A stretch of DNA of 64,000 nucleotides from an uncultured Gammaproteobacteria bacterium (GTDB lineage Bacteria > Patescibacteriota > Microgenomatia > JALYQM01): contig CAYOFQ010000002.1 of NCBI GenBank assembly GCA_964403585.1, positions 5,667 to 69,666 of the forward strand, read 5' to 3'. The translations under genes were made by a program, and so were the position numbers. The notes under the pieces are model-generated. The model saw nothing but the letters and a program-made list of their open reading frames with translations. It ran no database searches and had not been told where the DNA came from. Below, in pieces: positions 1 through 55,455 of this stretch (position 1 is the first letter of the stretch; each line of letters begins with the position of its first letter).

Positions 1-2155
1 CAATACATTGTTTATATAATTCCGCACGCTCCAACTCAGGAATATATCTCCACTCTCTGTATTCAACACCCTCAAAATACTTATCAACTTCGTTATATCG
101 CTGCATCATTTTTTCAATAAGAAGCTCAATCGGCTGCATAGGTTGCTGATGTACTTCAGATGTGTATTCAGAAATTGCCTTCTTCAAAGCCAAGGCAACT
201 CCAATATAATCAACTACTATGCCAGCTTCTTTATCTTTATATCTTCTATTAACTCGGGTAATTGCCTGCATCAAGGTATAACCTTTAATCGGCTTATCTA
301 TGTAAATTGTATGCAAATGAGGAACATCAAATCCCGTTAACCACATGTCACAGACAATAACTATTTTGAGTTTATCATCAGGATTTTTAAATCTCTTTTC
401 CAATTCTTTGTTACTCAATTCGTCTTGAATTTTTCCTTTATAATCGCTATTACTAGAAATAACAATTGCCATCTCAGGAGCTAAAGGTAAATCCTTCATA
501 ATATTATAAAGATCAACGGCTATCTTTCGAGTCATCGTTACAACCATTGCCTTACCTTCAAGTTTTCTATGTACAAAATGGTATATAATATCCTTTGCAA
601 CTCGTCTCAACCTATCATCCGCACCCACTAAACGCTCTAATTCGCTAAATTTCTTTTTTAATGTTTCCTTCACTTCTTCGGGATGTTCCGAAAAATAATC
701 ATCAAAATCTTCATTGATAAATTCATTCGCGAAATGAAGTGGAATTAACCGGCTATCATAAAAAATTGGAACCGTAGTCTGGTCACGCTCTGAACGATCA
801 ATAGTATATCTGCTAACAACCTTCCCAAACACGAGCTGAGTATTTCTATCGCTAAAAGCTATCGGAGTACCTGTTATACCTAAGAAAGAGGCATTCGGAG
901 CAGCAGTACGGATATTACCTGCGTAATCAGCATATTGAGAACGATGAGCTTCATCTGCTATTACAATTAGATTAGCTCGATCCGTAATCTTATGGTCAAA
1001 ATCAAACTTCTGGATAGTCGTAAAAAGTATTTCGGAACCAGGATAGGACAATTTCTCTTTTAAATCCTCAACGGTAACAGCAATTTTCGAACCTATAAAA
1101 CCTGAACGTAAAAAAGTCTTATACAATTGCTGATCTAAATCATTTCGATCAGTCAAAAATAACAGCATGGGACCAGAAAGTTCATCAAGTTGTCGCACCT
1201 TATTGGTATAAAAAACCATTGACAAGGATTTTCCACTACCTTGAGTATGCCAATAAACACCAATCTTTTTGTTACCTTTCACCGAATCAAGAGTTTGCTT
1301 AATCGTCCTATTAACTCCAAAGTACTGATGATACATGCACATTTTTTTTGTGTATTTTGTAGCATCTTTTTCTGCATCAGCTTCGAATACAATGAAGTAA
1401 TGAATAATATCAAGCAAATGATCTTTATTAAATATACCCTTAGTCAATACCTCCAGCTGATATTTATCTTCATTATTCTCTTCTTCACTTTCGATCCCGT
1501 CCCAAGGCACAAAGAAATCCCATGAGGAAGAAACCGTTCCATGTTTCGCCTTAAAAGAGTCACTAGCTACTAAAACTTGGTTAAAATAGAAGATTTTAGG
1601 AATATCCTGCTTATACTTCTCATGCAGTTGAGTAAAGGCATCAACAATTGTAGCATTAGGATCTGTAGGATTTTTCAATTCATAAATAGCGATAGGTAGA
1701 CCATTAATAAACACAACAACATCTGGCCGTCTTGTTTTCTCAACACCTTGCACAGAAAATTGATTTACAACTAAGAACTCATTATTAAACAAGTTTTTAA
1801 AATCAATCAATTTAACATATTCATTTTTAGTATCTCCAGCTTTATTCCTAAAATGAACTTCGATTCCTTTAATTATCCACTCGTAGGCTTCTTTATTTCC
1901 AAGCTCAATATCTACGTGATGAAATCTCATAAGCAGTTGCACAACTTCGTAAATTTTTTCTTCTGGAATTGACGGATTAATCCGTATAAGCGACCGAGTC
2001 AATCGTGATTTTAGAATTACATCACGATAATCCTCCCGCTCAGGTGCAACCCCTCCAGGAGCAATATCAGGCCCATATGCATACTCATACCCAAGCTGCT
2101 TAAACCAACCTAATAATGGCTGTTCAGACAATGTATCTTCATTCAACTTACTCAT
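1..2155 (-). CDS. hsdR: Type I restriction enzyme R subunit HsdR (partial; C-terminus lies beyond window start)
   Basis: Minus-strand frame is open from ATG at 2155 to the window edge. There is no stop, so it is absent from the ORF track. My own translation gives N-terminus MSKLNEDTLSEQPLLGWFKQLGYEY (HsdR N-terminal domain), Walker A HTQGSGKSLSMVFY near 1200-1260 and a DEAH box IVIADEAHRS near 930-960. The ATG sits 2 nt after the hsdS stop. Confidence 0.85.
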   Translation of the reverse strand, partial: MSKLNEDTLSEQPLLGWFKQLGYEYAYGPDIAPGGVAPEREDYRDVILKSRLTRSLIRINPSIPEEKIYEVVQLLMRFHHVDIELGNKEAYEWIIKGIEVHFRNKAGDTKNEYVKLIDFKNLFNNEFLVVNQFSVQGVEKTRRPDVVVFINGLPIAIYELKNPTDPNATIVDAFTQLHEKYKQDIPKIFYFNQVLVASDSFKAKHGTVSSSWDFFVPWDGIESEEENNEDKYQLEVLTKGIFNKDHLLDIIHYFIVFEADAEKDATKYTKKMCMYHQYFGVNRTIKQTLDSVKGNKKIGVYWHTQGSGKSLSMVFYTNKVRQLDELSGPMLLFLTDRNDLDQQLYKTFLRSGFIGSKIAVTVEDLKEKLSYPGSEILFTTIQKFDFDHKITDRANLIVIADEAHRSQYADYAGNIRTAAPNASFLGITGTPIAFSDRNTQLVFGKVVSRYTIDRSERDQTTVPIFYDSRLIPLHFANEFINEDFDDYFSEHPEEVKETLKKKFSELERLVGADDRLRRVAKDIIYHFVHRKLEGKAMVVTMTRKIAVDLYNIMKDLPLAPEMAIVISSNSDYKGKIQDELSNKELEKRFKNPDDKLKIVIVCDMWLTGFDVPHLHTIYIDKPIKGYTLMQAITRVNRRYKDKEAGIVVDYIGVALALKKAISEYTSEVHQQPMQPIELLIEKMMQRYNEVDKYFEGVEYREWRYIPELERAELYKQCI

Positions 2156-17331: not shown

Positions 17332-17372
17332 AATGTAATTATATCGTAGTTGGAAGATTTGAGATAATACTA

Positions 17373-17400
17373 AAAAAGGGCTTCATAAAGCCCTTAAAAA
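17373..17400. terminator. Bidirectional intrinsic terminator aaaaAAGGGCTTcataAAGCCCTTaaaaa
   Basis: 8-bp GC-containing stem with A-run and T-run on both sides. It abuts the direct repeat at 17403. Confidence 0.6.
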
Positions 17401-17402
17401 TC

Positions 17403-17418
17403 TGCTCCCCGACTGGGA
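17403..17418. repeat. Direct repeat of the tRNA-Asn 3' end (TGCTCCCCGACTGGGA vs TGCTCCCCGACTAGGA at 18403-18418), att-like
   Basis: 15 of 16 positions are identical and in the same orientation, 1 kb downstream of the tRNA 3' end. Confidence 0.55.
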
Positions 17419-17455: not shown

Positions 17456-17519
17456 TTATAGTTTGTTTCGGCTTCTATTTGCCTCATCAGATAGAGATAA
17501 CTCTATGACAAACTACAAC
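17456..17519 (-). ncRNA. Hammerhead ribozyme, type III (helices I and II closed, III open)
   Basis: Minus-strand RNA GUAGUUUG-UC|AUAGAG-UUAU-CUCUAU-CUGAUGA-GGC-AAAUAGAA-GCC-GAAAC-AAACUAU. All invariant core nucleotides are present (CUGAUGA, GAAA, GUC cleavage triplet). Helix I is 6 bp with a UUAU loop, helix II 3 bp, helix III at least 8 bp. Predicted cleavage is after the C complementary to plus 17507. Confidence 0.75.
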
Positions 17520-17713
17520 ACGAGGAAATTATGAAACTATACTTAAAGCAAAAAACTAATTCTTCGACTTTCGTCAAAGCAAGTCTTATGCAATGAGCAT
17601 ATGTTCATCGCTTCCTCGTACTGTAGTTTGTATAAAACCCTTCGATTGTTTCGCGCAATGCGCAAGTACAATTCTTTAGTCGGGAGGGCCAAAGACAAAA
17701 CTTTCAGATGCGA

Positions 17714-18094
17714 CTACTCCGCCCAGGGATCGAAATCAGTTTCGGTAAGTTCTACCACTCGCGGATGCTTCTGCAGCTCGGCAAGTTCGACCTCCGAAAC
17801 GTTTTCGAAGAAACATCCTGCATAAGAGACAACCATTTGGTCATCCCTCATCTGGTTGAGCTCAACAATCGCGTCGGGATAGAGCGGCTGCTCCATTCCA
17901 CCGTGATTTATGAACCACTGCTTCTTACCTTCGGCTACAGCCTCGGCGGGAGTTAACGATCGCGGCACGATGATCCAGCCGTGGCCACAAATCAAGGCTC
18001 CAGCATTGAGCGGGAACTCGTCTTCGAATCGCGAGATCACACAACCCCAATAATTTTTGCCGGCGGTCTGATTGGCGATGTTCGATGCGTTCAT
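17714..18094 (-). CDS. Hypothetical protein (GC-rich, compositionally atypical), cargo of the tRNA-associated mini-island
   Basis: 126 aa, no signal peptide, GC about 50% versus about 35% for the flanks. It is preceded by promoter-leader module L5. Confidence 0.5.
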   Translation of the reverse strand: MNASNIANQTAGKNYWGCVISRFEDEFPLNAGALICGHGWIIVPRSLTPAEAVAEGKKQWFINHGGMEQPLYPDAIVELNQMRDDQMVVSYAGCFFENVSEVELAELQKHPRVVELTETDFDPWAE

Positions 18095-18404
18095 TATTTT
18101 TCCCTTTCTTAGCTAAGACTGCTTGCAGCGAAAGTGCTACCGCTTTGTCTTAAAAGACCCTTAATACATTCGAATTTAATCAAATGCATAAAGGGTCTTT
18201 CATTACTAAGAAAGAAGATAAACTACATATTTTGAGGAAGATATAAGCTAAAAAGCTAATCCTCGTGTTGTAAAAGAACACTTATGAGCTCAATTGAGCT
18301 CAATCTTAATTACATTCATAAGTTCAATTTGAGCTTAGAGTATAACTAAGATATGTTTATTATATCACAAAATAGGGAAAAAGTAAATTACTATAGGTTA
18401 TTTG
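18095..18404 (-). promoter_or_regulatory. Promoter-leader module copy L5 (CCTATAGTA box, TATAAT, perfect GAGCTCAATTGAGCTC palindrome, TTTTACAACACGAGG box, structured 3' leader)
   Basis: Minus strand reads aaCCTATAGTAatTTACTT...gaTATAAT, then a leader with the 16-bp perfect palindrome at 18286-18301 and two strong hairpins before the RBS. It begins 1 nt after the tRNA 3' end. Confidence 0.45.
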
Positions 18405-18681
18405 CTCCCCGACTAGGATTCGAACCTAGAACCTTCTCGTTACATGAACCCCACAAGTTTCCTAGTGGCATGGACTATCTCATCACCATACTTAAAAAGC
18501 ACAGGTGTCAGGCGTATAGTCTCTGAACCTTCAATACGCAAGAAGCGTAAAGCTTGGCTGCGGATTACCATAATCTTTCGATCGTAGGCTTCCCGACAGT
18601 TAACCCAATTTTCACTTCAGGATTTCTCCAGAAGGCTGCATCAATCTACAGCGAGCCGCTCTACCGTTGAGCTATCAGGGA
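18405..18681 (-). tRNA. tRNA-Asn(GUU) interrupted by a group I intron (exons 18648-18681 and 18405-18442)
   Basis: 5' half UCCCUGA-UA-GCUCAACGGUAGAGC-G-GCUCG-CUGU. 3' half UAACGAGA-AGGUU-CUAGGUUCGAAUCCUAG-UCGGGGA-G. The acceptor stems pair (UCCCUGA/UCGGGGA). Spliced anticodon loop is CUGUUAA, class I variable loop, discriminator G73, no encoded CCA. Confidence 0.65.
18443..18647 (-). ncRNA. Group I intron (IC3-like, Azoarcus/cyanobacterial tRNA-intron type), 205 nt, no ORF
   Basis: 5' exon ends in U. IGS GCAG pairs with the exon CUGU. P2 is CUUC-U-GGA-GAAA-UCC-U-GAAG. The core shows extended identity to the Azoarcus pre-tRNA-Ile intron as recalled from memory (UAUGGUAAUCCGCAGCCAAGCUU...UUGAAGGUUCAGAGACUAUACGCC...CACCU). 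The intron ends with omega-G (CAUG|UAACGAG). Confidence 0.65.
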
Positions 18682-18684
18682 ATA

Positions 18685-19401
18685 TTAACTTTTACCGTGC
18701 TTTAAGCACGATGCATCCTGAATTCTATCACCAAAAACAGCAGAAATCCACCCCATAATTTGACGCTGTATATCTGAGCAACTGAACCTAATAGAAAACA
18801 CTCCATAAGAGTGTATATTTTTTCTAATTTTCTGTGAATCAATCTTATTTTTTACTATATAAGTTTTATGGAATTTAGCCTTAGAAATACCCGTTAGTTG
18901 AGACCAAAATTCCCTTGCAGCTTCTATATCTAAACCTTCATGAATCCAAAGTGCACCTCTAAATCTATCTTCAGGGACCTTCGCAAATTGCCGTAACCAG
19001 CCCATCATAAACTCGATTATCCGAGGATCAGAATTTGCGATACCTCCCTTCCCATCGGCTTTATCACCTTCACCCAAATAAATAGCGATACCTGCCAACA
19101 ACCTGTCCCTTTCAGAAATCGCACCTAGTTCATTTTTTGCATGTAAAAATATTTGCTGAGTTTTATTAATTCTGTAGGAACGTTTATTTTCAGCTGCAGC
19201 AAGAGAACCCTTTTTTTGACCGTTAATTTTTGTAGTAATAAGCCGGTTTCTCTGTTCATCAGTTAATACTATATCCCTACACCAACGACTTAATGTGTCT
19301 TTAGAAACTTTAACCTGTAATAAAATCTCATTATAAGAAAGACCTTTACTTCTTAATTTCTGAGCAATAATTCGTTCTTCCAATTTCCCTGAATAACCCA
19401 T
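18685..19401 (-). CDS. HTH-domain protein, possible LAGLIDADG-like endonuclease fold (uncertain)
   Basis: 238 aa. N-terminal HTH (RSKGLSYNEILLQVKVSKDTLSRWCRDI). Segment ERDRLLAGIAIYLGEGDKADGKG loosely resembles a LAGLIDADG motif. It ends 4 nt before the intron-containing tRNA. Confidence 0.3.
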   Translation of the reverse strand: MGYSGKLEERIIAQKLRSKGLSYNEILLQVKVSKDTLSRWCRDIVLTDEQRNRLITTKINGQKKGSLAAAENKRSYRINKTQQIFLHAKNELGAISERDRLLAGIAIYLGEGDKADGKGGIANSDPRIIEFMMGWLRQFAKVPEDRFRGALWIHEGLDIEAAREFWSQLTGISKAKFHKTYIVKNKIDSQKIRKNIHSYGVFSIRFSCSDIQRQIMGWISAVFGDRIQDASCLKHGKS

Positions 19402-54998: not shown

Positions 54999-55021
54999 AA
55001 AAACATCAAAAGAAAATGATG
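54999..55021 (-). terminator. Intrinsic terminator immediately 3' of ssrA (CAUCA-uuuucuuu-UGAUG-UUUUU)
   Basis: 5-bp stem plus a U5 run on the minus strand. A second overlapping hairpin gives it bidirectional character. Confidence 0.5.
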
Positions 55022-55455
55022 TGGAGATGCCGATCTATGAAATCGGGTCTGGAATCTGTAATTAAAAACATCTACATAGCATAGTCGGTACTTATATCTC
55101 GTACCACAACGATCCTACCGACAGGAGAAGTGATACAAAGGTCAAAGTCTTAAAGGATTACAGCGACCACCCCGAATCCTCGCATACAATCTTTGTTTAC
55201 GCCCTACTCCGCTCGATTGTAAAATCAGAATAGAACGTCCATTGTTTAGCTAAAGAAAAGTTTAGCCAAATGCAGGATAGCTAACGCCTGCTACAGCGTT
55301 ACCCAAGCCGAAGTTTGGGAACTTTGCAGCGATTTTGTCAGCTATTGATGTAGAAGAATCTGCATCTATATTTTAGTCCCGTTTTTACGACTCTTGAGAC
55401 CATCGTCGGCTATGCAGTTTTTAAAGAGCACATCCCATCGAAACAACACATCCCC
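55022..55455 (-). ncRNA. ssrA: tmRNA (SsrA)
   Basis: 5' end GGGGAUGUGUUGUUUCGAUGGGAUG matches the canonical GGGGcUGauucuggaUUCGAcGGGAu. 3' end ...CCGAU-UUCAUAG-AUCGG-CAUCUCC-A forms a T-arm and an acceptor strand pairing with the 5' GGGGAUG. A candidate tag ORF begins after the UAG at ...AAUAGCUGAC... and ends at the UAA inside hairpin GCUAAAcuuuucUUUAGC. It is divergent from smpB. Confidence 0.6.

Follow-up and report, generated by a model that had tools for sequence, protein, structure and literature searches.

The locus described here raises the question of whether a hammerhead motif at the end of an orphan gene is a genuine self-cleaving RNA and, if so, what it does there. The locus lies in a 64,000 nucleotide (nt) stretch of contig CAYOFQ010000002.1 from an uncultured bacterium; this whole stretch is termed the window. 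A first-pass annotation of the window described a complete type III hammerhead ribozyme with an intact core on the minus strand, in the 3′ untranslated region (UTR) of an open reading frame (ORF). Catalogues of hammerheads in bacterial and phage DNA go back fifteen years. The motif described here is very probably a real self-cleaving RNA of the type III hammerhead class, a kind that is common in phages and prophages. The explanation favored here, at somewhat better than an even chance, is that it belongs to a phage/mobile-element subfamily and is the 3′ module of an approximately 1-kb foreign cassette at a tRNA-Asn gene, where it cuts the messenger RNA (mRNA) in competition with a hairpin.

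The hammerhead motif

The invariant core is complete in the minus-strand sequence, i.e. C3 U4 G5 A6 U7 G8 A9, G12 A13 A14 and C17 are all found (Table 1). The A15.1-U16.1 pair is formed by A17466 with U17508, the G10.1-C11.1 pair is present, and position 17 is C and not G. Helix I has 6 bp and is capped by a 4-nt loop. Helix II has 3 bp (GGC/GCC) and is capped by an 8-nt loop. Helix III is open, which gives the type III topology. The first-pass annotation had listed the same core, the closed 6-bp helix I, the 3-bp helix II with its 8-nt loop and an open helix III, and these can all be read in the sequence. Its coordinates (17456–17519) are correct within one base, and helix III, for which at least 8 bp had been claimed, has 11 bp.

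When a 76-nt segment is folded in isolation, the minimum free energy (MFE) structure is the hammerhead three-way junction, with −18.1 kcal/mol and a z of −3.55; none of 200 shuffled sequences folds as well. Loop 1 (UUAU, 17500–17497) could pair with loop 2 (AUAG, 17478–17475), which suggests, from sequence alone, a possible contact between the two loops. Across the subfamily described below, loop 1 is rich in pyrimidines and loop 2 in purines; the variable lengths of the loops bar a count of loop-loop covariation.

A descriptor of the type III hammerhead finds one site in the 64-kb window, which is this one, and none in about 180 kb of related loci of the candidate phyla radiation (CPR). In Markov simulations of 200 windows of 64 kb, a loose version of the descriptor gives a mean of 0.045 matches per window, and a version with the stringency of the observed motif finds nothing (0/200).

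The Rfam model Hammerhead_3 (RF00008) matches the motif over its full length (model positions 1–54) with 33.6 bits and an expectation value (E) of 7.9e-6, when 221 nt are searched. Whole-window Rfam scans, at the gathering score and at E ≤ 1, do not list the site. This is read as loss at the Infernal filters together with a bias of the model against a 3-bp helix II, and not as a true negative. The loss of score sits in helix II, where the model wants 4 bp and a shorter loop and the window hammerhead has 3 bp and the 8-nt loop RAAUNGAA. The first-pass annotation had taken an RF00008 score below gathering as a refutation. The score is indeed below (33.6 vs. 48.5 bits), but other members of the subfamily also reach just 34.5–39.4 bits. 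The threshold shuts out the whole subfamily, thus a score below it does not refute the site in the window.

The hammerhead subfamily

A pattern specific for helix II, CTGATGAGGC-N(4–12)-GCCGAAAC, has at least 120 loci in viral contigs, and the type III version of the pattern likewise has at least 120. Among the viral loci listed, 83 distinct type III examples were parsed. These counts, together with the published link to prophages and integrases (PMC3088659), do not agree with the earlier description of bacterial hammerheads as sporadic. A narrower pattern, limited to the loop form NAAUNGAA and a helix II of 3 bp, finds 4 viral and 29 metagenomic loci, mostly type III and with the unusual architecture of the window hammerhead. 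In this subfamily helix I always has 6 bp and a pyrimidine-rich loop of 4–9 nt, helix II has 3 bp, and loop 2 is RAAUNGAA.

An alignment of 18 subfamily relatives (A2), from which the window sequence was left out, displays pairing in 96% of cells as compared with 71.5% in shuffles. Changes on both sides are found in 10 of 14 pairs. The covariation score is 0.69 (vs. 0.195), which none of 500 shuffles reaches, and pairing drops to 31%–44% when the partner columns are slid. Retrieval of the relatives used a core-plus-loop-2 pattern derived from the window sequence, followed by a filter for helices I and II. This selection accounts for part of the pairing percentage of these two helices, but not for the variety of pair types. 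The covariance model R1, which is based on these 18 relatives and on nothing from the window, scores 68.5 bits (E 4e-20) at 17459–17515 of the minus strand. This is the sole match in the 64 kb, and there is no match in 306 kb of other loci.

Most phage type III hammerheads, 69 of 78 among the matches listed, are placed 10–35 nt upstream of a start codon, after a structured segment. Two subfamily members, L233 and L259, display the order gene, hammerhead, terminator that is found in the window, and this supports a role of the window hammerhead at the 3′ end.

Several subfamily loci have additional candidate self-cleaving ribozymes close to their hammerheads. L240 carries three subfamily hammerheads spaced at 320–350 nt. 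A second type III hammerhead is present near the subfamily member in L241 (130–184, plus strand), and a weak type I match near that in L238 (157–197, minus strand). Near the hammerhead of L262 there is a twister-P1 match (9–60, minus strand) with 59 bits, where the threshold is 67.2 bits. The pattern matches in L239, L258 and L264 were rejected. Their translated flank resembles a prepilin N-terminus (...FTLIELV...), i.e. they are coding sequence, and they are chance matches because helix II cannot pair. They illustrate the type of false positive that patterns limited to the core produce.

A hairpin that shares a strand with helix III

An imperfect hairpin of 124 nt overlaps the 5′ end of the hammerhead. 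The 3′ arm of the hairpin (17528–17508) includes the entire 5′ strand of helix III. The 5′ arm, ACAAACUACAG..., is ACAAACUACAGUACGAGGAA (17631–17612), and its first ten bases are nearly identical to the 3′ strand of helix III. The 5′ arm is thus a near copy of that strand and both compete for the same substrate strand, so that the active fold would be transient or conditional.

In any context longer than the isolated segment, the 5′ strand of helix III pairs with this upstream arm. In a fold of 211 nt (−67.5 kcal/mol, z −7.64) the hairpin is closed and helix III is open. When the hammerhead fold is enforced the energy is −60.7 kcal/mol, a penalty of 6.8 kcal/mol. The energy model leaves out the tertiary contacts of the hammerhead. 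The first-pass annotation had concluded that the 3′ end of the mRNA would be self-cleaved. This consequence is not straightforward: the substrate strand is shared with a more stable hairpin, and cleavage may be slow or conditional. The 5′ cleavage product is predicted to be the hairpin with a single-base 3′ overhang.

A second cassette

A metagenome contig, L251 (L282 and L283 are the same), carries a homologous unit with an unrelated ORF. The ORF in L251 has 91 amino acids (aa) and is another orphan (ORFan), with no detectable similarity to the ORF in the window. The two units have in common the promoter block and the leader motif UUCUUUxACAACACGAGGA. The large leader hairpin is also kept in the leader of L251 (655–812, minus strand), with four compensatory pairs, and L251 also pairs its ribosome-binding site with an upstream anti-Shine-Dalgarno stretch.

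The 3′ UTR of L251 is organized as in the window. The sequence CAxxACGAGxxAGCGAUG opens a hairpin of about 125 nt that ends in UUUCCUCGUGUUGU(A)GUUUGUC, and the hammerhead follows. There are five differences between the two ribozymes, i.e. one compensatory pair in helix I (A-U to G-C) and three loop positions. Two of these loop positions (positions 1 and 5 of loop 2) also vary across the subfamily. A compensatory pair with all other differences in loops is what selection for ribozyme function would be expected to leave. The flanking sequence is far less conserved between the two units than the hammerhead.

The hairpin is preserved in both cassettes. Its 3′ arm is invariant and its 5′ arm displays only G-U to A-U and U-G to C-G changes. 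The penalty for the hammerhead fold in L251 is 5.9 kcal/mol. The window leader contains the motif UACAACACGAGGA (18272–18260), which is a perfect 13-nt complement (inverted repeat I5) of 17526–17514, UCCUCGUGUUGUA, just before the cleavage site, and this complement is kept in L251. Judged from the sequences, pairing of leader with 3′ UTR could circularize the mRNA or could open the inhibitory hairpin.

The cassette in L251 follows the end of a transposase-like gene. Similarity of its flanks to the 3′ half of tRNA-Asn is not above chance, and the same holds for tRNA-like repeats around it. Further scans of viral contigs with the pre-cleavage strand, the leader motif and the exact loop-2 pattern gave nothing or chance matches, and a scan with the helix I pattern returned type II hammerheads.

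The insert at the tRNA-Asn gene

The window is part of a bacterial chromosome and carries rpoD, dnaG and transfer-messenger RNA (tmRNA) genes. Relatives of the neighboring deaminase are mostly from metagenome-assembled genomes labelled Patescibacteria, Woesebacteria, Saccharibacteria or Paceibacterota; several of the nearest records, however, bear the label Gammaproteobacteria. The host genome belongs to the Patescibacteria (CPR).

The tRNA-Asn(GUU) gene, which directly precedes the cassette on the minus strand, carries a group I intron of 205 nt (18647–18443) that splits the anticodon loop at position 35/36. The split gene is missed by ARAGORN and also by the tRNA model of Rfam. Its two halves align contiguously to an intron-less tRNA-Asn(GUU) in the related locus L004 (2267–2341), which identifies the window gene as tRNA-Asn split by an intron. 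Group I introns at position 35/36 of Patescibacteria tRNA-Asn have recently been described (PMC13011429).

The 3′ end of the tRNA gene is present twice, as direct repeats (D1) that are identical at 17 of 19 positions and lie exactly 1000 nt apart. The alignment score of the repeats is 28, compared with 12.6 ± 2.3 in shuffles, none of which is as high (0/300). The distal repeat is the far end of the insert, 38 nt past the hammerhead. A duplicated tRNA end is a signature of site-specific integration; read from the sequence, this is a 1000-bp insert integrated at the 3′ end of tRNA-Asn. The first-pass annotation had placed the hammerhead in a putative integrated cassette next to a group I intron, and this agrees with an insert between tRNA 3′-end repeats and an intron in the tRNA.

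The insert holds a single ORF. No integrase was found within 6 kb on either side of it, and the insert has no DNA similarity to GenBank phages in near or distant mode. An empty site was looked for in 14 related Patescibacteria loci. The closest of these (L004) has its intron-less tRNA-Asn in a different neighborhood, and in none of the 14 is tRNA-Asn beside the deaminase. Three independent assemblies display the identical integrated arrangement, with no empty site or circle junction found there.

The transcription unit and its open reading frame

The ORF and the hammerhead are bracketed as one unit by a promoter (18387–18359) and a terminator (17395–17376). The ORF is on the same strand as the hammerhead, and its stop codon (17716–17714) is 195 nt upstream, as had been claimed. 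The terminator is just beyond the distal repeat and so outside the insert; it probably served the tRNA gene originally and now ends the cassette transcript.

The block CCTATAGTA precedes the cassette promoter. It has three occurrences in the window, at 18397 (minus), 8594 (minus) and 23905 (plus), the other two being intergenic. The recurring sequence at these positions is ATCCTATAGTATTT[T/G]ACT...17 nt...TATAAT. Judged by sequence, it resembles a strong promoter that is specific to this genome and has a conserved element ahead of the −35 box.

The 126 aa ORF has no match in Pfam, PHROG or NCBIfam. No homologue beyond the protein itself was found among 5.8 billion clusters, and among 1.84 billion representatives there is only one relative, P0002, with 34% identity. 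The contig of P0002 is phage-like, with a PIF1 helicase, AAA_24, HTH_17 and a glycoside-hydrolase-like protein; no hammerhead was found near P0002 in it. The GC content of the ORF is about 0.50, as compared with 0.35–0.42 in the flanks. The higher GC and the sole relative in a phage-like contig point to a foreign origin of the cassette. An AlphaFold2 model of the ORF has a mean predicted local distance difference test score (pLDDT) of 52, which is below use for a fold search.

The leader is a conserved structured RNA (18095–18290) and displays a three-way junction whose outer helix pairs CUUUCUUAG (18214–18206) with the ribosome-binding region CUAAGAAAG (18112–18104). Rfam assigns the leader to no family, the best E being 0.28 with miRNA noise only, and a search of the leader for another ribozyme class thus found none in Rfam. 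The modeled fold suggests that the leader is possibly a translational control element.

A short direct repeat, UGUAGUUU[A/G]UC, flanks the ORF at 18227–18217 and 17517–17507. The upstream copy, UGUAGUUUAUC, repeats the substrate strand and was considered as a second hammerhead. No CUGAUGA or GAAA core follows it, and this candidate was rejected. Nor can this site be cut in trans, because it has no core and the true ribozyme has a capped helix I. In a tandem or permuted unit the UTRs would be duplicates, but a local alignment of the 5′ UTR with the 3′ UTR scores no higher than shuffles.

Table 1. Positions of the hammerhead, the cassette and the features around it in the window.
Feature	Position	Strand	Basis
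Type III hammerhead ribozyme motif, complete	17456..17518	minus	Sequence, MFE fold, RF00008 33.6 bits, subfamily model R1 68.5 bits, descriptor, simulations
Helix III, 5′ strand, UUGUAGUUUGU	17518-17508	minus	
C17 (GUC triplet)	17507	minus	
Predicted scissile bond, 3′ of C17507 / 5′ of A17506	17506..17507	minus	Hammerhead numbering on sequence
Helix I and loop, AUAGAG (17506-17501) UUAU CUCUAU (17496-17491)	17506-17491	minus	
CUGAUGA core	17490-17484	minus	
Helix II and 8-nt loop, GGC AAAUAGAA GCC	17483-17470	minus	
GAA core	17469-17467	minus	
Helix III, 3′ strand, ACAAACUAUAA	17466-17456	minus	
Imperfect hairpin, 124 nt, basal helix about 21 bp	17508..17631	minus	Inverted repeat I1, 211-nt fold
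Cargo ORF, 126 aa, no known domain	17714..18094	minus	ORF list
Structured 5′ leader, about 250 nt	18095..18352	minus	Fold z −6.91
Sigma-70-type promoter, TTTACT-17 nt-TATAAT, extended −10 TG	18359..18387	minus	Promoter scan, 10/12 matches
Intrinsic terminator, AAGGGCUUUAUGAAGCCCUU and U tract	17368..17395	minus	Terminator scan (17395-17376), sequence
Distal attachment (att)-like repeat, displaced and partly decayed copy of tRNA-Asn 3′ end	17400..17418	minus	Direct repeat D1
Proximal att-like repeat, functional tRNA-Asn 3′ end (acceptor 3′ strand and discriminator)	18400..18418	minus	Direct repeat D1
tRNA-Asn(GUU) gene with group I intron	18405..18681	minus	Rfam Intron_gpI 79.7 bits; exon alignment to L004
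Neighbors: deaminase, DUF1428, glyoxalase, RibD_C, DUF1801, MazG, RpoD, DnaG, LAGLIDADG-like protein	within 6 kb		

Proposed function and alternative explanations

The cassette has the order strong host-type promoter, leader that pairs with the ribosome-binding site, ORFan gene, 124-nt hairpin and hammerhead. In the mechanism proposed here the transcript would start near 18352 and stop at the terminator near 17370, and a cut between C17507 and A17506 would remove the tail that contains the att-like repeat and the terminator. Hammerhead cleavage leaves an upstream RNA with a 2′,3′-cyclic phosphate and a downstream RNA with a 5′-OH. The mRNA would thus be left with a cyclic phosphate end one base past the foot of the long hairpin, and an end capped in this way should withstand polyadenylation as well as attack by 3′ exonucleases. 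The 5′ arm of the hairpin and the 3′ strand of helix III would be rivals for the one substrate strand until the cut is made. After cleavage the hairpin would close, expel the ribozyme fragment and block re-ligation, despite the 11-bp helix III.

Several points weigh against this reading. The hairpin is predicted to be the more stable fold and is transcribed first, and in the hairpin context the base-pair probability of A15.1-U16.1 is about 2e-5 with nearest-neighbor energies. On these models the ribozyme could be largely silent in the native transcript. There is no gene directly after the hammerhead, unlike in most phage type III examples. The RF00008 gathering score is not reached and helix II is short, with only 3 bp. 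The cassette family has two members in the data searched, and the stabilizing role of a hairpin-capped cyclic phosphate end is one that we infer.

A match to the hammerhead consensus by chance, in an RNA without ribozyme activity, might account for the low RF00008 score and the short helix II in a region that is AT-rich. This is strongly disfavored, as an equally complete motif is absent from all simulated windows, the independent subfamily model reaches E 4e-20, and the homologue in L251 displays compensatory changes. A ribozyme that is, or recently was, active but has no present role is a more serious alternative, although an unlikely one. The insert would then be the stump of a decayed prophage or integrative element in which the hammerhead once split two phage cistrons. 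The insert is only 1000 bp, there is no integrase within 6 kb on either side and the distal tRNA copy is partly decayed, all of which would be expected of such a stump. The usual phage site is directly upstream of a start codon and the window site is not, and the 69 of 78 examples therefore keep this explanation in play. However the module of hairpin and hammerhead is retained in the diverged L251, the substitutions in the ribozyme are compensatory or mostly at positions that vary in the subfamily, indicating continuing selection, and the order gene, hammerhead, terminator recurs in L233 and L259.

A further alternative takes the hairpin as the primary element, i.e. as a protein-binding or recombination site or as a 3′ stabilizer. 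The hammerhead would fire only when the hairpin opens and cleavage would be regulated, with pairing of the leader (18272–18260) to 17526–17514, a helicase or a temperature change as the triggers envisaged. The energy gap (6.8 kcal/mol in the window and 5.9 kcal/mol in L251) allows such a normally-off ribozyme. The perfect 13-nt leader complement of the pre-cleavage strand in both cassettes is in agreement with it, as are the invariant 3′ arm and the wobble-compatible changes in the 5′ arm. However the leader-3′ UTR pairing shows no covariation because the partners are identical in both cassettes, and the MFE fold of the whole insert leaves this pairing unused. The trigger is hypothetical, and the energies on which the gap depends omit the hammerhead tertiary contacts. 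This alternative is likewise improbable.

Excision of the insert as a 1-kb DNA circle by way of the 19-nt repeats is very improbable. In that case the hammerhead would trim multimeric RNA to RNA of unit length, possibly circular. Transcription of a circle would give multimers because the strongest terminator (17395–17376) is outside the repeats and no intrinsic terminator of comparable strength is inside the insert, where there is only a weaker terminator-like stem (17579–17562). The hammerhead is 38 nt from the repeat, and type III topology with a long helix III generally favors ligation. Against excision, no integrase or excisionase was found, the three independent assemblies all have the integrated arrangement and no empty site or circle junction, the 1-kb RNA fold is not rod-like, and the L251 cassette is without flanking tRNA-like repeats. 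A viroid-like or retrozyme-like circular RNA was also rejected: there is a single hammerhead, no core at 18227–18217, and a 1-kb fold that is not a rod.

The cassette reading of the hammerhead may be extended to both units. In this extension a two-state RNA device, hairpin or helix III, ends a family of approximately 1-kb Patescibacteria cassettes with interchangeable ORFan cargo and acts as a regulated switch, which would determine how the mRNAs of mobile cargo genes end and how long they last. The cassettes could land at tRNA 3′ ends or beside transposase genes and could carry a common promoter block and leader. This is speculative and more probably wrong than right; a ribozyme switch on mobile gene cassettes has a modest chance.

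Comparison with known systems

Since 2011, hundreds of bacterial hammerheads have been known from prophages or from the vicinity of integrases; the genes that they flank differ in identity, and several of the ribozymes cleave in vitro (Perreault et al. 2011, PMC3088659). The window hammerhead resembles these prophage and phage examples in its canonical core, its mobile-element context near an attachment site and the small uncharacterized gene that it flanks. The published examples (PMC3088659) are just upstream of the next gene in polycistronic units, whereas the window hammerhead is the last element of a monocistronic unit before the terminator. The window hammerhead also differs in that a conserved long hairpin uses its substrate strand as well, and in its Patescibacteria host. 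A literature search found no paper that treats hammerheads in Patescibacteria as its topic. As compared with RF00008, the open helix III and all invariant core bases are the same, and helix II differs as described above.

Control by alternative folding is known for the hammerheads of viroids and satellite RNAs, e.g. the avsunviroids. There, as predicted for the window, a strand is sequestered in a more stable alternative helix and the catalytic fold is only transient. Unlike these RNAs, the cassette RNA is DNA-encoded with a promoter and a terminator, has a single ribozyme and is not rod-like. Integron cassettes have a similar modular layout, in which a variable ORFan cargo is followed by a conserved imperfect palindrome of about 120 nt, and the short direct repeat that flanks the ORF (18227–18217 and 17517–17507) is a further likeness. 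The likeness is one of layout only, as the window cassette has its own promoter and is without the attC core sites RYYYAAC/GTTRRRY. An integron cassette was rejected since the hairpin ends (ACAAAC... / ...GUUUGUC) lack these sites and no integron integrase was found.

As one more hammerhead, the example in the window adds little. It is unusually well framed, being part of a single transcription unit with a defined promoter, terminator, attachment boundaries and a conserved competitor helix. The competitor helix predicts that the 5′ arm of the hairpin slows cleavage and then locks the product. What goes beyond the known picture is the conserved competition of hairpin and helix III and the cassette layout with unrelated cargo, in two cassettes only. 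If the proposed function is correct, a prokaryotic hammerhead would have a concrete role, in giving the mRNA of mobile cargo genes a 3′ end with a hairpin-capped cyclic phosphate. The locus extends the ribozyme-rich picture of Patescibacteria, as a tRNA group I intron adjoins a hammerhead cassette.

Neighboring features

An ORF of 238 aa (18685–19401, minus strand) stops 3 nt before the tRNA-Asn gene and displays a LAGLIDADG-like motif, LLAGIAIYLGEGDK. It has a weak N-terminal match to a helix-turn-helix (Pfam HTH_23; PHROG DNA-binding). By its sequence it looks like a free-standing homing-endonuclease-like gene that is beside, and not inside, the group I intron. The tmRNA gene (55019–55455, minus strand; 91 bits) has large insertions relative to the Rfam consensus.

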